32,000 nt of DNA, taken from positions 1-32,000 of the forward strand of contig CAYHYM010000004.1 of NCBI GenBank assembly GCA_964360965.1. The letters are read 5' to 3'. This DNA comes from an uncultured Gammaproteobacteria bacterium (GTDB lineage Bacteria > Patescibacteriota > Microgenomatia > Daviesbacterales > UBA10151). Under the pieces are notes generated by a model, which did not search any database, had not been told where the DNA came from, and worked only from the letters and a program-made list of their open reading frames with translations. Positions 4,553 through 31,329 of the stretch are shown piece by piece; within the stretch, counting starts at the first letter, position 1, and every line of letters begins with the position of its first letter. A program made the position numbers and the translations under genes.

Positions 4553-5220
4553 AACTAATCGCCCAACAAATTCCCGGAATTCCATATTTATTAAACTGTA
4601 ACCCGGTCAATCAAACAGGCTGTCCACCTGGCCAGAGCGTGCCCAGGACTGGTGCTTTAAATTTTACCAGCCTGGGGGATTTTATCTTCGGACTCTTAAA
4701 CATTGTCTTTTCCATTGCCGTATTTTTGGCCTTTTTCTGGCTGGTGTGGGGAGCTTTTCAATATATTACCTCAGGAGGGAATAAGGAAAGATTGGCTGCT
4801 GCCAGGGCCAGAATCACCTGGGCCATTGTGGGATTACTGCTGGTGGCAGTTTCCTTTCTAGTAGCCCAATTTTTGGCTCAGGTTTTACCTCCCCAAAAAG
4901 GAACACCAATTTTGTCAGTACCGACCGCTTATGCTGCTGTTGATATTGGCAAGGAGTATGGTTTTGGAGATATCCGGTCTTTAGGAGAAGGGGTCACTAA
5001 ACTGGTTGCTCCCACCTTTTCCATTGCCACCACGGTGGTGATAATATATTTTTTAATGGGAGCTTTTAAATTTTTAACCTCAGGAGGGAATAAGGAGGCC
5101 ACTGCTTCTGCCCGTGGTATGATTACCCATGCCATTGTGGGATTTATTATTTTAATGTTTGCTTTTTTGATTTTACAATTTATTCCACAAGCTTTTGGCT
5201 TAAATTTTTCGTTGTTTTAA
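4549..5220 (+). CDS. Tandem double TrbC/VirB2-like pilin (two pilin modules in one polypeptide)
   Basis: 223-aa ORF whose start forms an ATGA overlap with the upstream stop. Module a is FFWLVWGAFQYITSGGNKERLAAARARITWAIVGLLLVAVSF. Module b is IIYFLMGAFKFLTSGGNKEATASARGMITHAIVGFIILMFAF. Confidence 0.85.
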   Translation: MKLIAQQIPGIPYLLNCNPVNQTGCPPGQSVPRTGALNFTSLGDFIFGLLNIVFSIAVFLAFFWLVWGAFQYITSGGNKERLAAARARITWAIVGLLLVAVSFLVAQFLAQVLPPQKGTPILSVPTAYAAVDIGKEYGFGDIRSLGEGVTKLVAPTFSIATTVVIIYFLMGAFKFLTSGGNKEATASARGMITHAIVGFIILMFAFLILQFIPQAFGLNFSLF

Positions 5221-5714
5221 TGATAAAAAAAATAGTTATTGTAATTTTAATAAATGTCTTTTTGGGATTAGGGACATCTTCTGTCTATGCTCTTCATGTG
5301 CCACCCGGCGCTACTTGTAATCCAATAGACCCGGCAGATCATTGTAACATTGGCTATTCTTGTCTACCGGTAACAGGTACTCCGGGCCACCAATGCTTAA
5401 GACCCCAATCCACAGACACCATTGGTAAAATCAGTGCACCATTAGCCATACAAGCTTTGGGTATAGGTAATATAGGCATCAGCAAATTTTTAAATAATTT
5501 AGTCACCCTAATTTATATTTTAGCCACTGTTGTTTTAGTCTTTATGTTTTTATGGGGATCTTTGGAGTGGTTAACATCAGGAGGGGATAAGGAAGCTGTA
5601 GGAAGAGCCAGAGGCAGGATTATTAATGCCCTGGTGGGAATTATTCTTTTCGGGGTGGCTTATGCCATACTGCGGCTGTTGGGAACATTTACCGGCTTTA
5701 CATTTTTCCAATAA
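5220..5714 (+). CDS. TrbC/VirB2-like pilin with a Cys-rich N-terminal head
   Basis: 164-aa ORF with a TAATG start/stop overlap. It has a signal peptide and a 4-Cys segment (CNPIDPADHCNIGYSCLPVTGTPGHQC). The pilin module is VFMFLWGSLEWLTSGGDKEAVGRARGRIINALVGIILFGVAYAIL. Confidence 0.85.
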   Translation: MIKKIVIVILINVFLGLGTSSVYALHVPPGATCNPIDPADHCNIGYSCLPVTGTPGHQCLRPQSTDTIGKISAPLAIQALGIGNIGISKFLNNLVTLIYILATVVLVFMFLWGSLEWLTSGGDKEAVGRARGRIINALVGIILFGVAYAILRLLGTFTGFTFFQ

Positions 5715-6845: not shown

Positions 6846-7226
6846 ATGAAAAAAGTTGCCTCAATTTTCTCTGCCTTTGGTTATCTAATATCTGCAGGAG
6901 CAGCTTTTGCTCAAACCATTACCATTGAAAGACCTGAGATCAGCGGCAAAAAGGTGGGCTTTTTAGATGTCAACCAATTCATCAAAAATGGGGTGACCCT
7001 GGCTTTTATTATTGCCCTGGTGATTGTTTTTATTATGCTGGTGTGGGGGTCAATTCAGTGGATTTTTTCCGGAGGATCAAAGGAGAATCTGGAGGCTGCC
7101 AGAAATAGAATCATTCACGCTCTGGTAGGCTTGGCTATTTTGGCGGTGGCTTTTGCCATTATTCAGCTTTTTGCCACCTTTGTGGGTGTTAATCTACTTG
7201 ATCTAAAAGTACCATCTCCAATATAA
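6846..7226 (+). CDS. TrbC/VirB2-like pilin
   Basis: 126-aa ORF with a signal peptide (ASIFSAFGYLISAGAAFAQ). The pilin module is VFIMLVWGSIQWIFSGGSKENLEAARNRIIHALVGLAILAVAFAII. Confidence 0.85.
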   Translation: MKKVASIFSAFGYLISAGAAFAQTITIERPEISGKKVGFLDVNQFIKNGVTLAFIIALVIVFIMLVWGSIQWIFSGGSKENLEAARNRIIHALVGLAILAVAFAIIQLFATFVGVNLLDLKVPSPI

Positions 7227-7568: not shown

Positions 7569-9164
7569 ATGTCTGTTAAGAAATTAATCTTCAGCTTAGC
7601 GGTATCTTTGGCATTTCTTTTGCTACCTGCTACCAACCACCAGCTATTAACTATCTCTGCTCAAACTACCACTTCCTCTGCCACTGCCTCTACAGCCATC
7701 AAACCATTGGGCATAGTCAGCTTTCAATCCCCACAATATATCAACCTGCAAATGATAAACCTGATGCACTCTGCCAGTTGCTTGATAAGCGGCATCTCTC
7801 CCATAAACCAACCTTGCGTGGAATACATTGGGGGTATCCCCGTACTTTCCTCTGTTAACCTATCAGGCGGTATGTTGGGTACTATCAGCACAGGATTGGC
7901 ACTACTTTATACAAATCCTCCCATCAAAAGCATTGAATACCTGGGTAGTATAGGGGACAGTTTAAGTTTTTTTGAAGTTAAACAGGCCCAAGCTCAGGTG
8001 GGAGGCTCTGGCAGCAAGGTATTATCTCCGGTTTTGGACCTTTGGAAAGTTTCAAGGAACATTGCCTATCTAACTATAATGATCATTTTTGTGGTGATTG
8101 GGGTGATGGTGATGTTTAGGAACAGAATCAATCCTCAAACAGTCATCACAGTCCAGGCAGCCCTGCCAGGCCTGGTGATTGGACTCATACTTATTACTTT
8201 CAGTTATTTTTTGGCAGCACTATTGGCAGATATTGCTTTTGTGGGCTCAAATATAGTCGGCCATTATTTTACCATTGCCCAAAGTCAAGCCATCTCTGTC
8301 AAAGGACCGGTGAACACTCTAGAAAACGAAAATGTCTTAAGTATCTTTAGCAGATTTTTTAACACCACCTCCAAAGAACAGTTTATTCCCCTATTTGACA
8401 CCATCTTTAAAAACCTGCCCACACCAGCCGCTTTAGATATTTTGACTCCTGCCCGTATGTTTACTTATGTTATTGTGGGAATGACTAACCAAATATTAAC
8501 CTTAACTGGTATATCCTCTATACCTGTAGCAGGCACTGCTACAGGTATATTTACAGGTATTAAAGGACTAACAGATGCACAGGCTACAGGATCATTTTTA
8601 GTATGGCTGATCTTAATACTAGTACTGATGTATTCCATGTTTAGAGTACTTTATCGTTTGATAATCAGTTATTTAACCATCATCTTTTTAACCATCACCG
8701 CCCCTTTTCATTTTTTAATTGCCGCTTTCCCGGGAAGACAAGAGGTGGTGACTGTTTGGGCCAGAAACATGCTGGCCAATATCCTGGTTTTTCCCGGAGT
8801 GTTGGCCATATTTTATTTTGCCGGCTATCTGATGGGGCCCACATTATTAACAAGCGCCGGTGGAGCAGGAGGATTAACTCTTAGTGATCTACTCAATATT
8901 AACAATCAATTGGGTGTGGCAGGAGCAAAAACACTGCCGCTTTTGGGAGGATTGGATCAAACAGTGATCCAGTTAATTCTGGCTTATGGCGCGCTGATTG
9001 CCGCACCAGCCATTCCGGAAATTATCATCAATGCCATAGGTAAAGTTGGTCCTGCCGGACAGACCATTGGTAGAGAGGTGACTGGAGCTATACAAAGCGG
9101 CAGAGGATACCTGCAACAAGGAGCCGGGGCAATTGGTGGAGCCTTGGGAGGCGGTAGACGTTAA
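7569..9164 (+). CDS. Polytopic membrane protein, VirB6/TrbL (PrgH/ConG)-like by topology and context
   Basis: 531-aa ORF with a signal peptide and several long hydrophobic helices (IAYLTIMIIFVVIGVMVMF, LVIGLILITFSYFLAALLADIAFV, FLVWLILILVLMYSMF, LTIIFLTITAPFHFLIAAF, ILVFPGVLAIFYFAGYL). The C-terminus is Gly-rich. It sits directly after the pilin genes. The assignment rests on architecture and synteny, not on a diagnostic motif. Confidence 0.55.
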   Translation: MSVKKLIFSLAVSLAFLLLPATNHQLLTISAQTTTSSATASTAIKPLGIVSFQSPQYINLQMINLMHSASCLISGISPINQPCVEYIGGIPVLSSVNLSGGMLGTISTGLALLYTNPPIKSIEYLGSIGDSLSFFEVKQAQAQVGGSGSKVLSPVLDLWKVSRNIAYLTIMIIFVVIGVMVMFRNRINPQTVITVQAALPGLVIGLILITFSYFLAALLADIAFVGSNIVGHYFTIAQSQAISVKGPVNTLENENVLSIFSRFFNTTSKEQFIPLFDTIFKNLPTPAALDILTPARMFTYVIVGMTNQILTLTGISSIPVAGTATGIFTGIKGLTDAQATGSFLVWLILILVLMYSMFRVLYRLIISYLTIIFLTITAPFHFLIAAFPGRQEVVTVWARNMLANILVFPGVLAIFYFAGYLMGPTLLTSAGGAGGLTLSDLLNINNQLGVAGAKTLPLLGGLDQTVIQLILAYGALIAAPAIPEIIINAIGKVGPAGQTIGREVTGAIQSGRGYLQQGAGAIGGALGGGRR

Positions 9165-12925: not shown

Positions 12926-13641
12926 ATACCACCCAGCAACATCTTCAGATGGAGGATATAAAAGATGATCTGATGATTTTGAAAAATGGCGGAGCGGCTT
13001 TGATTTTACAAAGCTCAGCTTTAAATTTCGGGCTGTTATCAGAGGTTGAACAACACTCAGTGGTGTTGTCTTTTGCCCAGATGCTCAATTCCCTGTCTTT
13101 TCCCATCCAGATTATGATTTATTCCCAAAGGCTCAATATTAACTCATATCTTCATTTGTTGGAGCGAGCCCGAACAATGCAGAGGAATCCCCTTCTTTCT
13201 CAAATGATTGACCGTTATAAAAACTTTGTGACTCAGGTTATTAAAGAAAATGATGTTTTGGATAAAAAATTTTATGTCATAGCCTATACCTCTTCTTTGG
13301 AGATGGGATTTGGTTTTAAAAATAAGGAGGCAAGATTAAAAAGAGCTCAAGCCATACTTTGGCCAAGAAGGGATCAGCTGATAAGGCAACTGGCCCGAGT
13401 GGGGCTAAAAGCAAACCAGCTGACCAGCCTGGAAATGCTGCAGCTTTTATATGATATTTATAACGGGGCGCAGCAGGATGTTCTACAAATTCCTCCTGTC
13501 AAACTTTCTCCCCCTCCACCTCCCCCAAACCCACCCCGGCCAAATCCAGTTCAAACAGCAGCTGCGCCACCTTCGCAAACTATTATAAATCAACCTAAAA
13601 ATCACCCTTTTGTGGTGGAGGAACTGGAGGATAATGTTTAA
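12922..13641 (+). CDS. ATPase-less protein resembling the N-terminal domain of Gram-positive VirB4 homologues; proline-rich C-terminus
   Basis: 239-aa ORF with an ATGA overlap upstream. DIKDDLMILKNGGAALILQSSALNFGLLSEVEQHSVVLSFAQMLNSLSFPIQIMIYSQRLNINSYL resembles the N-domain pattern of Tn916 Orf16-type VirB4 proteins. There is no Walker motif. The tail reads PPVKLSPPPPPPNPPRPNP. Confidence 0.5.
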   Translation: MNTTQQHLQMEDIKDDLMILKNGGAALILQSSALNFGLLSEVEQHSVVLSFAQMLNSLSFPIQIMIYSQRLNINSYLHLLERARTMQRNPLLSQMIDRYKNFVTQVIKENDVLDKKFYVIAYTSSLEMGFGFKNKEARLKRAQAILWPRRDQLIRQLARVGLKANQLTSLEMLQLLYDIYNGAQQDVLQIPPVKLSPPPPPPNPPRPNPVQTAAAPPSQTIINQPKNHPFVVEELEDNV

Positions 13642-15364
13642 GGGCACACCCCAATTAACCCTGGAGGATATCATCGCCCCCCAAGAACTGGAGATTGATT
13701 TTAATCATCTTAAAATCAATGACAGATTTTACCGCACCTATTTTATCTCCAGCTACCCGCGATTTGTGGAGCCTAACTGGCTGGAACCTTTAATTTCTTT
13801 TGACCATTCGCTTTTTATCTCCATGTTTGTCTATCCCACCTCATCCAGGGGGGTGCTGGATGATCTACGGCGCAAAATTGCCGAGATGGAAGCCACCATA
13901 GAAGGTGATGTTGAGCGTGGACGGGAAATTGATCCAACAGTCAGAGTGGCTTTGGAGGATGCCCAGTCTTTACAGGAAGAACTGGTTAGGGGGGTGGAGA
14001 GATTTTTCCAGTTTGCCCTCTATATCAGCGTGCCTGCCCAAGATAAGGAGGATTTGCAAAATACCTGCCAGCTTTTTGAATCCACTGCCTCCTCTTTGTC
14101 TTTGAGCGCCCAGCCAGCCAGCCTGCAAATGGAAGATGGCTTTAAATCCAGTCTGCCTTTGGGATCTGACCTGTTGTATCTGACCCATAATATGGACACC
14201 CCAGCTCTCTCCACCACTTTTCCTTTTGCTTCGTCGGAGCTGACAGCCAATGAGGGAGTGATGTATGGCATCAATGCGCATAATGACTCCCTGATTCTTT
14301 TTGACAGGTTTTCTTTAGAGAATGCGAATTCAGTGGTGTTTGCCAAATCCGGCGCGGGAAAATCATATTTTGTTAAACTGGAAATTTTAAGGTCTTTAAT
14401 GTTTGGCACGGAAATTTTGGTGATTGATCCTGAGAATGAATATTTAAACCTGTGCCAGGCAGTGGGAGGCGAATATATTAACTTTTCCGCCACCTCTGCT
14501 GTTAAGATCAATCCTTTTGATCTGTCTTTAAGCTTATCTCCTGAGGAAAATGAGCTGGGCAGAAAGATATTATCTTTGACCGCCTTTTTAAAACTGGTGT
14601 TGGGCCAGCTAAACCCCCAGGAGGCGGCCATTTTGGATCGGGCTTTAAAACAAACCTACAGGTTAAAAGGCATCACTGATGACCCTAAAACCCAAATTCA
14701 GCCCCAGATAAGCACCCCTTTAATGGAGGACCTTTATAAAATACTCATCGGTATTGAAGAAAAACCGGCTCTGGATCTGGCAGCACGCTTAGAAAGATTT
14801 ATCAAAGGCTCGCTGACCGGTATTTTCTCCTCTCACTCAAACATCAATCTGTCCTCCTCTTTCACTGTTTTTTCCATCCGGAATCTGGCAGACCAGCTGC
14901 GGCCTTTGGCCATATTTATGATCCTGGAATATATCTGGACTAAAATACGCTCACAGCTTAAAAAAAGAATCCTGGTGGTTGATGAAGCCTGGTATTTGAT
15001 GAGAAATGAGGATTCGGCCAATTTTCTGGTGGATATTGCCAAAAGAGCCCGTAAGTATTTTTTGGGACTGACCACCATCACCCAGGATGTGGAGGATTTT
15101 TTAGGTACTGACCGGGGCAAAGAAATCATTGCCAATTCCTCCATTCAGGTACTTCTTAAACAAGCCCCATCATCCATTGAAAAAGTGGGGGGGACATTTA
15201 ATCTGTCAGAGGGAGAAAAAAGGCTGCTTTTATCAGAAGGGGTGGGAGAGGGACTCTTTTTTGCCGGCAATACTCATGTGGCCATGAGAGTGGTGGCCTC
15301 ACCAGAAGAACACAAATTAATTACCACCAGTCCGCAGGAAATATTGGCAAGACAAAACATTTAG
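13634..15364 (+). CDS. virB4: VirB4/TrbE/CagE-family T4SS ATPase
   Basis: Walker A is FAKSGAGKSYF (about 14341-14373) and Walker B is RILVVDEAWYL (about 14967-14999). The N-domain (YRTYFISSYPRFVEPNWLEPL) is typical of VirB4. The preferred start is ATG 13634, preceded by GGAGG (13626-13630) and overlapping the upstream stop. The track start 13610 is in the same frame. Confidence 0.9.
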   Translation: MFKGTPQLTLEDIIAPQELEIDFNHLKINDRFYRTYFISSYPRFVEPNWLEPLISFDHSLFISMFVYPTSSRGVLDDLRRKIAEMEATIEGDVERGREIDPTVRVALEDAQSLQEELVRGVERFFQFALYISVPAQDKEDLQNTCQLFESTASSLSLSAQPASLQMEDGFKSSLPLGSDLLYLTHNMDTPALSTTFPFASSELTANEGVMYGINAHNDSLILFDRFSLENANSVVFAKSGAGKSYFVKLEILRSLMFGTEILVIDPENEYLNLCQAVGGEYINFSATSAVKINPFDLSLSLSPEENELGRKILSLTAFLKLVLGQLNPQEAAILDRALKQTYRLKGITDDPKTQIQPQISTPLMEDLYKILIGIEEKPALDLAARLERFIKGSLTGIFSSHSNINLSSSFTVFSIRNLADQLRPLAIFMILEYIWTKIRSQLKKRILVVDEAWYLMRNEDSANFLVDIAKRARKYFLGLTTITQDVEDFLGTDRGKEIIANSSIQVLLKQAPSSIEKVGGTFNLSEGEKRLLLSEGVGEGLFFAGNTHVAMRVVASPEEHKLITTSPQEILARQNI

Positions 15365-19440: not shown

Positions 19441-19609
19441 TATTATGTTCGATTATACTACAATTTAATAATAATAGTAGTAAATAATATAGTTGGTGGA
19501 TATGTTGAAAAGCCTAAAAATGATGCTGGAGATTCGCATAAAATTTGTGTTGAAAGTAGGTTGATTTCTTGTTGATAAGTTGTGGAAAAGTGACTTATCC
19601 GGTGGATAA
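19441..19609. other. Candidate oriC half: AT-rich stretch plus a cluster of DnaA-box-like 9-mers between dnaA and the nuclease/dnaN genes
   Basis: The AT-rich run is 19441-19492. Matches to TGTGGATAA are GGTGGATAT (19495-19503), TGTTGATAA (19570-19578), TGTGGAAAA (19581-19589) and GGTGGATAA (19601-19609, inside the dnaA 3' end). Confidence 0.45.
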
Positions 19610-20926
19610 ATTATTTTTGACTTCCCCCAGTATCCGCTGGACATCTTTGTCAGTGTCTGCCAGTTTTTTTATTTTATCCCTCCCATGCATGACAGTGGTA
19701 TGGTCCCTGTTGCCTAAAATTTGTCCTATTTTTTCAACTGTTAAATTTAGGTGCTCGCTTAAGATAAACATAGTTATATGTCTTGGTAGAACCAACTCTT
19801 TTTGTCTTCTTGATCCGATCAAATCTTTTTGGCTTAAATTAAAGTAATCGCAAATAGTTGTTAAAACAAGTTTTGGGTCTACTTTTAGATTATTTTTGGG
19901 AGTTGTTTGTAAATGCAGGCTGATATTTTCGGTGGTTGGGGGTAAGTTCTGGGTCTTTAAAATCTGCAAAATCTGAACAAGCCGCCCCTCCAGCTCTCTG
20001 ATGTTTGTATTATATGATGAGGCCAAAAGCTGTAGCGCTTCCTCTGATAAAACCGCTCCCTGCTGCAAACATTTGGCGCGCAGTATGGCAACTCTGGTGT
20101 CAAAATCAGGCGGCTGGATATCAATCATCAGCCCTCCTGCAAAGCGTGATTTTAGCCTGTCCTCAAGTTTTGCTATCTCATTGGGAGAGCGATCTGATGT
20201 TAAAATAACCTGGGAATTTTTTGAAATTAGCTCATTAAATGTGTGGAAAAACTCTTCCTGTGTTCCCTCTCGTCCTGAAAAAAACTGGATATCATCTATC
20301 AGTAAAACATCCAGGGAGCGGTATTTGGCACGCAGAGCACCCATCTTGTGTGTTTGTATTGCTTCAACATAATCGTTCATAAATTTTTCAGATGGAGAGT
20401 AGATAATTTTGATGTGTGGTTTTTTGTCAAGGATGGCGTTGCCAATGGCAAGCATCAGGTGGGTTTTGCCCACCCCTGTGCCGCCATAAATAAAAAGAGG
20501 ATTGTAAGATAAGCCTGGATTTTGAGCCACAGCCAAAGCTGCCGCATATGCCACATTATTGGATAACCCTACCACAAAATTTTCTAAGGTGTATTTGGGA
20601 TTAAGCGAGTGGGAGGCAACAGGCTCAATAATCTGGAAAAAATCCTCCTCTTTTTGGTCAGAAAATTTCTCCAACATCCTCACAGTTAAATCAATCTTAA
20701 CCTTTTGGCCTAAAAGCTTTTCAAAGGTGCGCTCAATTAACTCCAGGTGCCTTTGGCTTAAAGTTTCTTTGATAAAGGCGTTATGGGCAGACAGAGTGGC
20801 AATTCCGTTGTTAAGTGATTGTAGGGCGGTTTTTTGGAAAAAGGTTTTAAAGTTGGCAGCAGAGACCTGCGGCTTGATGCCCTCTAAAAATTTATGCCAG
20901 AGCTTTAAGTTGTCCATGTTGTCCAT
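19595..20926 (-). CDS. dnaA: Chromosomal replication initiator protein DnaA
   Basis: 443-aa ORF with the AAA+ Walker A (GGTGVGKTHLM) and Walker B (VLLIDDIQF). The C-terminal DNA-binding signature GNRDHTTVMHG is present. Confidence 0.97.
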   Translation of the reverse strand: MDNMDNLKLWHKFLEGIKPQVSAANFKTFFQKTALQSLNNGIATLSAHNAFIKETLSQRHLELIERTFEKLLGQKVKIDLTVRMLEKFSDQKEEDFFQIIEPVASHSLNPKYTLENFVVGLSNNVAYAAALAVAQNPGLSYNPLFIYGGTGVGKTHLMLAIGNAILDKKPHIKIIYSPSEKFMNDYVEAIQTHKMGALRAKYRSLDVLLIDDIQFFSGREGTQEEFFHTFNELISKNSQVILTSDRSPNEIAKLEDRLKSRFAGGLMIDIQPPDFDTRVAILRAKCLQQGAVLSEEALQLLASSYNTNIRELEGRLVQILQILKTQNLPPTTENISLHLQTTPKNNLKVDPKLVLTTICDYFNLSQKDLIGSRRQKELVLPRHITMFILSEHLNLTVEKIGQILGNRDHTTVMHGRDKIKKLADTDKDVQRILGEVKNNLSTG

Positions 20927-21180: not shown

Positions 21181-21187
21181 GGTTTTC

Positions 21188-21277
21188 GTCATTCCTGCGA
21201 ATGCAGGAATCCATTTAACAAAAAACGTAAACCCATGCCGCTCAAGTTAATTGGATCCCGACATTCGTCGGGATGAC
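21188..21277. mobile_element. MITE/REP-like palindromic element of about 90 bp between rpmH and rnpA
   Basis: Hairpin 1 is ATTCCTGC-GAAT-GCAGGAAT (21191-21210). Hairpin 2 is ATCCCGAC-ATTC-GTCGGGAT (21255-21274). The left 25 nt and the reverse complement of the right 25 nt match at 19/25 positions by hand alignment. The outer ends are GTCAT...ATGAC. Confidence 0.45.
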
Positions 21278-21283
21278 ACCGCT

Positions 21284-27866: not shown

Positions 27867-27878
27867 ACCTTGACCTAT

Positions 27879-28649
27879 ATGGACAGATTAAGTTTACATG
27901 CCGAGGAGAGAATAATTCTTGGTAAAAAAGTAAAAAGGTTGCGCAAAGATGGCCTTTTGCCTGGCCATGTCTTTGGCAAAGGACTGGAAGGTGAGACGGT
28001 GGCTGTTTCTTCTCGCGATTTTCTAAAGACCTTCCACCTTGCCGGAGAAACCGGATTGATAGATTTAAAGATTGGCAAAGAAAAGGTCAGGCCGGTGCTG
28101 GTTAGGGAAGTGCAGTATGATCCTGTGTCAGGTCATCCAATCCATATAGATTTCTACCAGGTTAATTTATCAGAAAAAGTTAAAGTACCTGTTCCTTTGG
28201 TTTTGATAGGTGAGCAGCCGGAATCAGTTCATTTGGGTGAGACAATTGTCCTGCAAACTTTAAATGAGGTGGAAGTAGAAGCCCTGCCCACAGATTTGGT
28301 GGAAAAAATAGAAGTGGATATTAGTCCTCTTAAGCTGGTTGACGATGCCATTACTGTGGGACAGCTCAATTATGATCGAGACAAACTAACCATAGATGCC
28401 GGTCCAGAGGAGATTGTGGTTAAACTGGCCCCGGCTGTGACTGCCGAGATGGAAAAACTTTTGGAAGAGCAGGCTGCTGAAACAGCTGCGGCTGCTGTTG
28501 AAACTGAAGAAGAAGGTGCTCCGGCAGAAGGTGAAGCAGTGGAAGGTGCAGAAGCTGCGGAAGGTGCACCAGGAGCTGAAGTTCCAGCTGGAGAAGAAGT
28601 CAAAGCAGAAGCTGGAGAGCCAGCCCAGCCTGAAGAAAACCCCCAATAA
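27879..28649 (+). CDS. rplY: 50S ribosomal protein L25/general stress protein Ctc with a long acidic Ala/Glu/Gly tail
   Basis: LSLHAEERIILGKKVKRLRKDGLLPGHVFGKG...IHIDFYQV matches L25/Ctc. The preferred start is ATG 27879; the track uses TTG 27870. Confidence 0.88.
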   Translation: MDRLSLHAEERIILGKKVKRLRKDGLLPGHVFGKGLEGETVAVSSRDFLKTFHLAGETGLIDLKIGKEKVRPVLVREVQYDPVSGHPIHIDFYQVNLSEKVKVPVPLVLIGEQPESVHLGETIVLQTLNEVEVEALPTDLVEKIEVDISPLKLVDDAITVGQLNYDRDKLTIDAGPEEIVVKLAPAVTAEMEKLLEEQAAETAAAAVETEEEGAPAEGEAVEGAEAAEGAPGAEVPAGEEVKAEAGEPAQPEENPQ

Positions 28650-28732
28650 GAACCCTCGCTTTGCTCGGAACCTTGCCCATTTGACTTCGTCAAAGGGTAA
28701 AGCGGGTAATTTGCGTTAATTTTGCGTTTAAT

Positions 28733-30907
28733 TTAGGCACGAGGCCAATCAGAGATCATTATGGATTCCCCTTTATGAGGTAGTTTTTGCCATAATTCTT
28801 CTGTAATAAAGGGCATGAATGGATGAAGCAGTTCTAGGCTGGTTTTGAAAACATACTCTAAAACAGGTTGAGCTTCAGCTCTTCTTTCTTTGGTAGATTC
28901 AATATATTTATCTGCAAACTCATGCCAGATAAAATCATATAAGATATTGGCAGCATCATGGAATCTGAAAGCTTCCAAGGCTTTAGTAACCTTTTCAGTA
29001 GTTTCTGCTAATTTTTTAATAATTTCTTTATCATCAGCATTGTCATTGCGAGGAGTCTGCGACGAAGCAATCTGGATTGGAGATTGCCACGGTCGCCCAG
29101 GCGACCTCGCAATGACGTCTTTATTTGGATTAAACTCAATGATGAAGCGGCCAATATTCCAAAGCTTATTGGTAAAATTTCTCATAGCCTGGAGTTTAGG
29201 ATGAGACAGGGATTGATCATGGCCCAAAGCTGTGCCGTAAATTAGAGCCATCCTGGCTGCATCTGCCCCGTATTGATCTGTAACTTCTAAGGGATTGACT
29301 ACGTTATTTTTAGATTTACTCATTTTTTTGCCTAAAGGATCTAAAACCATGCCATGTAAAACAATATCTTGAAAAGGGATTTTGTTGGTAGCGTATAAAC
29401 CCAGCATGATCATTCTGGCCACCCAGAAAAATAAAATTTCTCTACCTGTTTCTATAATTTGAGTTGGATAGAATTTTTCAAAATCTCCGCCAGCTGGCGG
29501 ATTGGTGGTCTGCAAAGTAGCGAAGGTCCACTGACCTGAAGAAAACCAGGTATCAAAAGTGTCTTGATCCTGTTCCAGGGTGGAGTCATTACAAGAGCTG
29601 CATGTATCCGGCTTTTCACCTTCAGTAACAGTCCATTTTTTGCAAGAATCACAATACCAGGCAGGAATCTGTATTCCCCAGATAATTTGCCTGGAGATAT
29701 TCCAATCCCTGATATTTTTAAGCCAGTTAAAGTAAATTTTGGCAAAATTTTTGGGATAAATTTTTATTTTCCCAGATTTTACTGCCTCAATTGCTTTTTT
29801 TGCCAAAGGTTCAACTTTTATAAACCACTGCTCCAAAGGCAGGGGTTCAATTACATTTTTACACTTATAACAAAGGCCAATTCTGTGTTTGTATTCATAA
29901 TCAACTTTTTCTAAAAGTTCTTTTTGCTCTAATTCTTCTACAACTGCCTGTTTTGCCGCTTTCACACTCATTCCGGAAAACTTTCCCGCACTAGCATTTA
30001 ACCTTCCATCAAAGCCAATCACCTGAACAATAGGTAGGTTATGGATTTGAGCTCTTGCAAAATCATCCATGTCATGGGCTGGGGTAAGTTTGATAATTCC
30101 TGTTCCAAAAGTAGGATCAACAGTGTCATCCGCTATAATTTTCATCTCTTTGTCTGTTAAAGGATTTTTTACTTTTCTACCTGTATACCGGGAATTTTTC
30201 TTATCTTTTGGGTTAATAGCCAGATAGTCATCAATCATGATTGGCTCTGGTCTGGTGGTAGCAATAACTAAATATTCTGGCTCGCCAGCTTTGCTGTTAA
30301 TTAGTGGGTAGCGGACATAATATAGCGGATCTTTTCTTTCTTCATAAACTACTTCTAAATCAGAAAAGGAGGTGCCATTTGTAGTGCAGTAATTAACCAA
30401 TCTTTGGGTTCTGTAAACCAATCCATCATCAAACAGTTTTTTAAAGGTTTTGTAGACAACTTTGACAATATCAGGATCAAGAGTAAATTTTTGTCTGGAC
30501 CAATCAAGAGAAAACCCCAGTCTTTTGAGTTGCTGTTCCATATTTCCTCTATTCTCTGCCACAAAATCCCAAATCATCTGATAAAGGGTGGTTCTGTCGT
30601 AATCAAATCTGGATTTTCCTTGATTCTCAAGATGTTTTTCAAAAACAAATTGTGTTTCAAAACCGGCATGGTCTGCTCCGGGCAGCCACAAAGTAGCTTC
30701 ACCTTTCATCCTATGATATCGGATGAGAATATCTTCAATGGTATACATGGCATGGCCAAAATGTAGGGGGGCATTGGCATTGGGTGGAGGTAAGATGATG
30801 GTAAAAGGTTTGCCATCAGGATTTATTTCAGGCTTAAAATAGCCTGCCTTTTCCCAAAATTTGTACCATTTTTGTTCAACCTTAGTTTGATTATAAACTT
30901 TGTCCAT
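28733..30907 (-). CDS. valS: Valine--tRNA ligase (short form lacking the C-terminal coiled coil)
   Basis: The HIGH region is PPPNANAPLHFGHAM and the KMSKS motif is GKKMSKSKNN. The editing and anticodon-binding patterns are present. The likely start is ATG 30907 (MDKVYNQTKVEQKWYKFW). TTG 30943 and ATG 30913 are in-frame alternatives. Confidence 0.95.
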   Translation of the reverse strand: MDKVYNQTKVEQKWYKFWEKAGYFKPEINPDGKPFTIILPPPNANAPLHFGHAMYTIEDILIRYHRMKGEATLWLPGADHAGFETQFVFEKHLENQGKSRFDYDRTTLYQMIWDFVAENRGNMEQQLKRLGFSLDWSRQKFTLDPDIVKVVYKTFKKLFDDGLVYRTQRLVNYCTTNGTSFSDLEVVYEERKDPLYYVRYPLINSKAGEPEYLVIATTRPEPIMIDDYLAINPKDKKNSRYTGRKVKNPLTDKEMKIIADDTVDPTFGTGIIKLTPAHDMDDFARAQIHNLPIVQVIGFDGRLNASAGKFSGMSVKAAKQAVVEELEQKELLEKVDYEYKHRIGLCYKCKNVIEPLPLEQWFIKVEPLAKKAIEAVKSGKIKIYPKNFAKIYFNWLKNIRDWNISRQIIWGIQIPAWYCDSCKKWTVTEGEKPDTCSSCNDSTLEQDQDTFDTWFSSGQWTFATLQTTNPPAGGDFEKFYPTQIIETGREILFFWVARMIMLGLYATNKIPFQDIVLHGMVLDPLGKKMSKSKNNVVNPLEVTDQYGADAARMALIYGTALGHDQSLSHPKLQAMRNFTNKLWNIGRFIIEFNPNKDVIARSPGRPWQSPIQIASSQTPRNDNADDKEIIKKLAETTEKVTKALEAFRFHDAANILYDFIWHEFADKYIESTKERRAEAQPVLEYVFKTSLELLHPFMPFITEELWQKLPHKGESIMISDWPRA
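29042..29116. mobile_element. 75-bp palindromic element with perfect 12-bp terminal inverted repeats, inserted in frame in valS
   Basis: GTCATTGCGAGG (29042-29053) is the exact reverse complement of CCTCGCAATGAC (29105-29116). The inner pair is GCAATCT (29067-29073) and AGATTGC (29081-29087). The length is 75 nt, or 25 codons, and it is translated as part of ...DVIARSPGRPWQSPIQIASSQTPRNDN.... My hand count is 44 G+C in 75 nt. Confidence 0.7.
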
Positions 30908-30939
30908 CAGCATAAGTATAGGGTGCTTGTAGTAGTTGG

Positions 30940-31329
30940 TCAACGATGACTATGCCGGGGTACTGGTTTAAAAAAGATTTTATTTCTTTCTTTTTGAGAA
31001 AAGGGAGTTCTCCAGGTGGCAAACTGTAACTGTTCATCAACATCTTCAAAGGCAACAGTCATAGTGTTATGAGTACGGTTTAGAAAGACTGTTCTAAGTC
31101 GGTAAACAGCGCCTGGTTGATAGGGAGTAGCTGGTTTTTTATTGGCATAAATATACTCATCTCTTCCAGGTATTTTAATAGTGACACTATTCAAGCCCAC
31201 TATAATACTATTACCTTTATCTTCATAAATAGTATGCACTACCCTCACATTAGGCTCTTCTGATTCTGGTTTATCCCAAAGTTCAGGATTTATTTGTCTT
31301 GCTACTTCACTAATACCTTCAATATTCAT
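30940..31329 (-). CDS. Hypothetical protein
   Basis: 129-aa ORF between tsaD and valS on the same strand. No family was recognised. Confidence 0.55.
   Translation of the reverse strand: MNIEGISEVARQINPELWDKPESEEPNVRVVHTIYEDKGNSIIVGLNSVTIKIPGRDEYIYANKKPATPYQPGAVYRLRTVFLNRTHNTMTVAFEDVDEQLQFATWRTPFSQKERNKIFFKPVPRHSHR

Follow-up and report, generated by a model that had tools for sequence, protein, structure and literature searches.

A 75-bp palindrome that lies in frame in valS, the gene for valine–tRNA ligase (ValRS), is probably an inverted pair of CGTC-tagged repetitive extragenic palindrome (REP) hairpins, similar to the Ssn-related motif (SRM), which entered a surface loop of a Daviesbacteria ValRS by insertion or arose there by rearrangement, and has been tolerated because the reading frame is kept and 25 disordered residues are added. 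The gene lies within the first 32,000 nucleotides of contig CAYHYM010000004.1, the stretch of DNA analyzed here (the window). Its closest database relatives at the ValRS protein level are named Candidatus Daviesbacteria, and the host is a Candidatus Daviesbacteria bacterium of the Candidate Phyla Radiation (CPR). An earlier reading of the same sequence (the original prediction) had taken the palindrome for a MITE-like element (MITE, miniature inverted-repeat transposable element) with 12-bp terminal inverted repeats. We find that this anatomy is wrong: the element is two inverted hairpin units of ~35 nt, without a target-site duplication, the 12-bp ends are merely the outer part of these units, and the right family is that of the CGTC-tagged REPs and Ssn-related repeats. 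The gene and the parts of the element are as follows.

28733..30943, minus strand: valS (valine--tRNA ligase), matching Thermus thermophilus ValRS 1gax with E = 2e-161
29042..29116, no strand assigned: 75-bp inverted pair of two CGTC-type hairpin units, tags outward, forming 25 codons of valS
29041..29074, plus strand: unit A, with tag TGTC, ATTGC, GAGGAGTCTGCGACGAA (a GTC-TGC-GAC mini-hairpin), GCAAT and tail CTG
29075..29079, no strand assigned: spacer between the unit tails, which together with the tails forms the apical loop GGATTGG
29080..29117, minus (coding) strand: unit C, with CGTC, ATTGC, GA, hairpin GGTCGCC-TG-GGCGACC, GTG, GCAAT and tail CTC

The palindrome itself was described correctly. 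Its ends, GTCATTGCGAGG (29042-29053) and CCTCGCAATGAC (29105-29116), are complementary at 12/12 positions and separated by 51 nt, and they surround the predicted inner core GCAATCT-GGATTGG-AGATTGC (29067-29087), in which the GCAATCT/AGATTGC pair encloses GGATTGG. Also as predicted, the element is exactly 25 codons long and in frame in the minus-strand open reading frame (ORF) 28733-30943, and it is richer in G+C than its surroundings, at 58.7% (about 59% had been proposed) against 40.5% for the whole window. With element boundaries marked by slashes, the layout on the coding strand is GAC / GTCATTGCGAGG-TCGCCTGGGCGA-CCGTGGCAATCT - CCAATCC - AGATTGCTTCG-TCGCAGACT-CCTCGCAATGAC / AAT. Within the window the exact 12-mer end is present only at the two termini of the element, and no other copy of the ATTGC subtype was found there. 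Folded as DNA, the 75-bp element reaches -25.3 and -23.1 kcal/mol on its two strands (z ~ -5.3), and unit C alone reaches -9.4 kcal/mol (z = -2.7). Compared with its relatives, each half is a member of a general unit of ~26-47 nt that can be written (C/T)GTC - ATTGC - GA - [hairpin] - GAA - GCAAT - C(T/C). The valS loop of another locus (L001) contains a unit identical to the 32-nt core of unit A, and unit A has 97% identity over 33 nt to a site on a Halomonas megaplasmid. We considered the 32/32 identity between the window and L001 as a sign of constraint, an argument weakened by the identical runs of 20-38 nt that also occur in conserved parts of valS.

The ends and the unit architecture recur far beyond this gene, which confirms the earlier expectation of a repeat family with recurring ends. 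A scan of viral contigs with the pattern GTCATTGCGA-N6-34-GAAGCAATC found the unit in at least 120 contigs, and the tags-outward pair is present in at least 120 genome stretches from a set of contigs with one genome per species. Matches listed for the pair include Alpha-, Gamma- and Deltaproteobacteria (many Bradyrhizobium, as well as Sphingomonas, Rickettsiales and Coxiellaceae), Bacteroidota (Pedobacter, Mucilaginibacter, Flavobacterium), Chloroflexi, Planctomycetota, Cyanobacteria (Microcoleus), Zixibacteria and Patescibacteria, the last including Berkelbacteria. The unit is also carried on plasmids of Halomonas, Nostocales and Methylocystis and in Helicobacter canis prophages. Since the same ends recur in other contigs and genomes, and an identical copy exists in an independent assembly from another sample (L329, a 3.8-kb twin contig and the sole record matching the host contig, with 100% identity across 3841 bp including the element), the palindrome goes beyond chance.

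In a set of 185 units, the 26-mer GTCATTGCGAGCGAAGCGAAGCAATC is the most frequent form. Unit middles are either GC-GNA-GC with any base as N (GCGAAGC, GCGCAGC, GCGTAGC, GCGGAGC) or a longer, arbitrary self-complementary hairpin. A pyrimidine (C or T) precedes GTC in 185/197 units, and in 164/170 units of the fixed-core set; like the one after the final C, it is conserved though outside the search pattern. Around a fixed GAGCGNAGCGA core the outer stem varies in a compensatory manner (ATTCT/AGAAT, ATCCC/GGGAT, ATCCT/AGGAT, ACCCT/AGGGT, ACTCT/AGAGT), which argues that the hairpin itself, beyond its sequence, is conserved. The tags-outward arrangement accounts for 22/31 close pairs, with units ~25 nt apart and usually extended by CCAG...CTGG; units also occur singly, head-to-tail and in the opposite order. 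Three phage-like viral contigs (L020, L041, L124) contain five or six units each. The six units of L020 share one strand, and in three of the gaps between successive units there is a single small or medium ORF; subfamilies ATTGC, ATCCC, ATTCT and ATTCC are mixed on this contig, as also on L045, L060 and L068. Genes between or beside units in the fetched loci were phage structural or regulatory ORFs only, with no nuclease and no transposase among them.

In the protein, the element is read in the valS frame as ...DVIARSPGRPWQSPIQIASSQTPRNDN..., its 25 codons giving VIARSPGRPWQSPIQIASSQTPRND, with a predicted tryptic peptide SPGRPWQSPIQIASSQTPR. A corresponding database protein (P0001, 726 aa) has its start codon 10 codons into ORF 28733-30943, which places the insert at about residues 600-624. 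An alignment of 120 ValRS orthologues with 62-77% identity supports both the proposed placement, in a variable region just after the NKLWN(I/A)xRF motif, and the status of the segment as an insertion. The insert follows NKLWNIGRF in the anticodon-binding helical domain, and the stretch from this motif to DDKxIL ranges from 15 to 56 residues across the orthologues; many Daviesbacteria ValRS have a minimal loop of 15-17 residues without the insert, e.g. IIEFKPEDSKTEISDHK. In an AlphaFold2 model of the window ValRS (mean pLDDT 85.9) the 25 inserted residues are coil with pLDDT 41-44, located between the confidently modeled helices 571-593 (then a helical turn at 598-601) and 626-647. The insert is thus predicted to add disordered residues in a variable loop of ValRS. 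A different 13-residue insertion, LMPYQNSEA[ST]ASL, directly follows NKLWNIGRFI in three other ValRS proteins (P0007, P0030, P0031).

Orthologous loops contain further units of the same general kind. YGTCAT...ATC hairpin units are found in this loop in the window and at L001, L003, L325, L326, L327 and L328, and their order, orientation and subfamily differ. L001, the closest DNA-level orthologue with an insert (76% protein identity), shares the right-hand 32 nt AGATTGCTTCGTCGCAGACTCCTCGCAATGAC of the window element, directly followed by a unit in the other orientation, GTCATTGCGACCCCGGACTTGATCCGGGGGAAGCAATCC; its units meet as AATGAC/GTCATT, with the tags central. The L003 loop has one unit, 24 nt and then GTCATTGCGAGCGAAGCAAAGCAATCT, and the L004 loop is empty. 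Immediately downstream of valS at L003 (2387-2758) is a gene with 23S_rRNA_IVP / bAvd Pfam matches. At the protein level, Daviesbacteria loops include peptides such as SHPELVSGS...MLKQVQHD, SVIPGDKPGIQ...WIPDQVRNDK and ...ILRFTQDDK, and DNA confirms units in L325-L328.

We compared the loop with the rest of the protein using a library of unit-derived peptides taken solely from non-Daviesbacteria loci. Exact 7-mer matches numbered 22 in 2775 ValRS-loop positions against 1 in the 80,084 positions of the remaining protein. At a threshold of at least 6/8 identity, 5.5% of 8-mer positions in the loop matched, against a background of 0.24% elsewhere in ValRS, and 32/120 orthologues (about a quarter) had a loop match. 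In a tree of the orthologues (unweighted pair group method with arithmetic mean, UPGMA), inserts are scattered among empty loops and neighbors carry different subfamilies; the tree is star-like, such that gains are not countable. In the valS regions of Daviesbacteria that were scanned (131 kb in all), units are present in valS at 7/8 loci (the loci having been chosen partly for inserts) and in tsaD at three loci and two positions, with only two to four sites elsewhere. As a background, 982 kb of metagenome contigs around distant ValRS genes (39-50% identity) contained ~5 convincing units, one of them in this loop. This clustering fits two readings, which it cannot separate: random insertions that survived at permissive sites, as has been argued for Rickettsia, or targeting or replacement at an existing tag.

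The copies in tsaD, an essential gene that neighbors valS, are in-frame CGTC-type pairs at L001 8621-8695, L326 715-788 and 963-1030, and L327 7488-7566. The L001 insert encodes the peptide NVIPANAGIQ...LDPRLRGDD; in the window, the N-terminal part of tsaD is beyond the window end. A generic tag-plus-hairpin scan of the window found a second pair:

21187..21278, no strand assigned: second CGTC-type pair, classical subfamily, tags outward, consisting of CGTCATTCCTGCGAATGCAGGAATCCA (plus strand), 44 nt and the reverse complement of TGTCATCCCGACGAATGTCGGGATCCA (minus strand)

This pair occupies the dnaA-rnpA spacer (dnaA at 19595-20926, minus strand), likely the origin region, and its first unit folds as DNA with -7.8 kcal/mol (z = -5.0). 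The ORF caller runs rnpA through this pair as MDPDIRRDD.... A near-identical classical unit, agreeing at 26/27 bases (the first tag base is C vs T), is present both in this dnaA-rnpA spacer and in L001 tsaD, which indicates that copies reach non-homologous sites.

A possible route for such movement is suggested by work on Neisseria. Chenal et al. 2025 (Nat Commun 16:2388; PMC11893778) reported that SsnA, a small single-domain GIY-YIG nuclease, recognizes the Neisseria repeat NTS, CGTCATTCCCGCGMAVGCGGGAATCYRG, binding and cutting it. SsnA cuts single-stranded DNA (ssDNA) only, and only the forward strand, with neither RNA nor duplex DNA as substrates; the three bases before the stem (GTC) govern cutting and the C after the stem governs binding. 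Tagged-hairpin repeats of both Neisseria and Wolbachia are cut as ssDNA by Ssn, and ssn genes are typically flanked by the repeats (PMC11893778). The sole GIY-YIG gene that we found, by regular expression and phmmer, is at an unrelated locus (L097, ~10.45-11.0 kb). It encodes a single-domain protein of 99 aa that matches PF01541 with E = 4.6e-11 after frameshift repair, its two frameshifted halves separately missing Pfam, and it has CGTC-tagged hairpins on both sides, e.g. CGTCAGCCCGGGCTTGACCCGGGC, in agreement with the published repeat-ssn-repeat layout. By analogy, the valS units may act, or may once have acted, as ssDNA hairpins for an Ssn-type nuclease, and their spread and reshuffling could have proceeded via ssDNA cutting and rejoining or via recombination between copies. 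The ValRS insert itself is probably neutral cargo with no function in aminoacylation. The GNA triloop, the G/A-rich internal loop, the strand-specific tag and the published enzymology all point to ssDNA as the relevant form.

Several observations weigh against this interpretation. The four CGTC families described so far have uninterrupted stems of 8-9 bp and loops of 4-5 nt (Di Nocera, De Gregorio & Rocco 2013, BMC Genomics 14:522; PMC3733652), whereas the valS units have a 5-bp outer stem, ATTGC/GCAAT, then an internal loop and a second hairpin. The SRM pattern, HGTCWYN(0-2)YYVSBRHN(0-5)WNVSBRGN(0-2)RNCYNB, has no match in the window, in any of its four units or in the canonical 26-mer. Neither the 32-kb window nor ~1.1 Mb of CPR DNA yielded an Ssn or GIY-YIG gene in what is a weak test (phmmer with three queries, and Pfam on eight small window ORFs), and the ATTGC subtype is not known to be cleaved or transposed. 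No near-identical empty valS allele was found, and the original insertion boundaries are therefore unprovable. Lastly, with standard DNA parameters unit A alone folds no better than shuffled sequence. Unusual stability as DNA is a property of GNA triloops closed by sheared G.A pairs, e.g. d(GCGAAGC), and of tandem G.A pairs, which suggests ssDNA as the relevant state. We know of no evidence that the standard parameters capture this extra stability; these motifs may explain the low predicted stability of the small units.

Four other explanations of the element were weighed. A conventional MITE would be a deletion derivative of an insertion sequence (IS) that is defined by its 12-bp terminal inverted repeats and that a trans-acting DDE transposase moves as one block of 75 bp. 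Such an origin, which we judge quite unlikely, fits the perfect 12-bp inverted ends, the small size, the G+C content above that of the surroundings and the presence of the same ends in other genomes. We know of no IS with the ends of the valS element, however, and no target-site duplication is present at its flanks (AGCATT on one side, GTCTTT on the other). Furthermore, the arms occur alone, in tandem and reversed, including at the same locus in L001 and L003, and their inner parts are unrelated hairpins rather than a shared MITE body. No transposase gene lies between or beside units in the fetched loci, and CGTC repeats as a class have no associated transposase (PMC3733652). That the palindrome is a chance product of a variable loop or an assembly artifact has negligible probability. 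A perfect 12-bp inverted repeat within 100 nt does arise in 31% of Markov-simulated windows, which limits what the palindrome alone can indicate, but chance or misassembly accounts neither for the identical independent assembly nor for the recurrence of these ends and this unit layout across hundreds of unrelated contigs.

A function in RNA is a rather unlikely alternative, in which the element would be regulatory rather than passive DNA: its hairpin in valS transcripts would hold back ribosomes, determine how stable the mRNA is or offer RNase a site. The proposed long mRNA hairpin is itself possible. As RNA the 75-bp element has a strong predicted fold (-39.9 kcal/mol, z = -4.5), and many REPs have been argued to be transcribed and to act as RNA (PMC3733652). 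However, the conserved features and the enzymology favor ssDNA as the relevant form: the commonest 26-nt unit keeps strand-specific motifs of DNA type (the GNA triloop and YGTC; unit C has the CGTC tag, not the triloop), and the repeat in its RNA version is not bound by SsnA (PMC11893778). Orthologues also lack the insert or have unrelated sequence or order in its place, and a search of 28700-29500 against Rfam covariance models (E <= 10) gave only noise, with no relevant match. Selection for the 25 residues as a functional part of ValRS, such as a new loop that binds tRNA or a partner, is very unlikely. Although inserts in about a quarter of the Daviesbacteria orthologues could in principle reflect selection for length, the inserted peptides are unrelated and are set by the DNA repeat, which is read in two or more frames, disorder is predicted for the segment, and many orthologues have the minimal loop. 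We also rejected an intron, an intein or translational bypass, as there is no sign of removal and the frame is open; an integron attC site, a CRISPR and a terminator were likewise considered and rejected.

Beyond the preferred reading of the element as an inverted pair of CGTC-tagged hairpins, a more specific model is possible though doubtful. Under it, the valS loop, and also tsaD, would be a true landing site in Daviesbacteria, where subfamilies enter or replace one another through site-directed ssDNA cut-and-join at existing GAC/GTC tags, and 'ATTGC-GA-[GC-GNA-GC]-GAA-GCAAT' would be an undescribed subtype that is found across phyla, is carried by phages and has its own nuclease partner.

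The window contains several other features. Close to valS, the L25/CTC ribosomal protein gene (27870-28649) has an Ala/Glu/Gly-rich acidic tail, ...AAETAAAAVETEEEGAPAEGEAVEGAEAAEGAPGAE..., of ~55% G+C (28380-28650), the other G+C peak near valS. An A+T-rich hairpin on the minus strand at 13693-13726, near the 5′ end of ORF 13610-15364, has a CGTC-type layout, TGTC-ATTGATTTTAA-GATGA-TTAAAATCAAT-CTC, with an 11-bp perfect stem, and could be a diverged unit or chance. A further palindrome, TATACCTGTAGCAG/CTGCTACAGGTATA, lies at 8519-8549 inside ORF 7569-9164; it is perfect over 14 bp around a loop of 3 nt and has no relation to the CGTC family. Two small ORFs (5220-5714 and 6846-7226) match Pfam T4SS_pilin (E = 1e-10 and 3e-8).

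No new kind of system is revealed here: the valS element belongs with the CGTC-tagged REPs, a kind described before, and is modestly new in its hairpin subtype, its CPR host and the loop hotspot; a full-text literature search with the exact DNA and peptide strings of the element returned nothing relevant. It extends to tiny CPR genomes the phenomenon of selfish palindromes in proteins, known from Rickettsia, and it indicates that at least one loop of an essential enzyme there varies in length largely through CGTC-type repeats. For the annotation and alignment of metagenomic aminoacyl-tRNA synthetase genes, this means that such 'low-complexity' peptides are repeat-derived and are not lineage-specific protein features. 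Filled, empty and rearranged sites at one locus form a natural series for working out how CGTC/Ssn-type hairpins move, and the analysis flags a hairpin subtype that is very common yet escapes current search patterns.

We assign the element to the CGTC superfamily because of its tag, hairpin, tail, dimer habit and intragenic behavior. CGTC-tagged REPs have an unpaired CGTC or TGTC tag (also CCTC), an AT-initial stem and a 3-nt tail, ~CCA; they are mostly inverted dimers with spacers of variable length, occur in five phyla and include intragenic in-frame copies in housekeeping genes, among them dimers in isoleucyl- and glycyl-tRNA synthetase genes (PMC3733652). The valS units agree in tag (CGTC in unit C, TGTC in unit A) and in a stem that starts with AT, and the dispersed inverted-dimer habit with in-frame copies is seen in valS and tsaD of Daviesbacteria. 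Stem and loop are of the described size in the second window pair (8-bp stems, 4-nt loops). The tails of the valS units are CTG and CTC, while those of relatives are mostly CCA or CTC; the first C is conserved, though the search pattern partly imposed it. Intragenic peptides tabulated for the family include RHSELVSGS, VIPAKAGI, WTPDQVRGD and others (PMC3733652), and peptides of the RHSELVSGS, VIPAKAGI and WxPDQVRxD kinds are also found in other Daviesbacteria ValRS loops; those of the window (VIARS..., ...IASS.TPRND) are absent from that list. Patescibacteria/CPR are outside the five listed phyla.

Other palindrome systems resemble the valS element in part. Rickettsia palindromic elements (RPEs) are likewise in-frame insertions in essential genes, where translation turns them into additional loops; they differ in that the host here is a CPR bacterium and the unit subtype occurs across phyla. 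Classic RPE-1 is longer (~100-150 bp) and Rickettsia-specific. RPE-4 and RPE-6, together with Neisseria dRS3, are CGTC-tagged members (PMC3733652). In REPINs and bacterial interspersed mosaic elements, with their REP-associated tyrosine transposases (RAYTs, TnpA-REP), two inverted REP hairpins also form a larger hairpin, ssDNA biology has been proposed and a short conserved tag stands beside the stem. There, however, the tag is GTAG rather than YGTC and the partner is a Y1 HUH transposase rather than a GIY-YIG nuclease; no Y1 transposase (RAYT) was noted in the gene tables of the fetched loci. REPIN families are also lineage-specific, whereas the valS-type unit is nearly identical across phyla. 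In Neisseria the SsnA/NTS pair limits natural transformation (PMC11893778), a role not transferable to a CPR bacterium without evidence. Neisseria NTS/dRS3 and the valS units share the layout CGTC-AT...hairpin...AT-C(Y), keeping GTC before and C after the stem, and in both the repeats are oriented and often paired.

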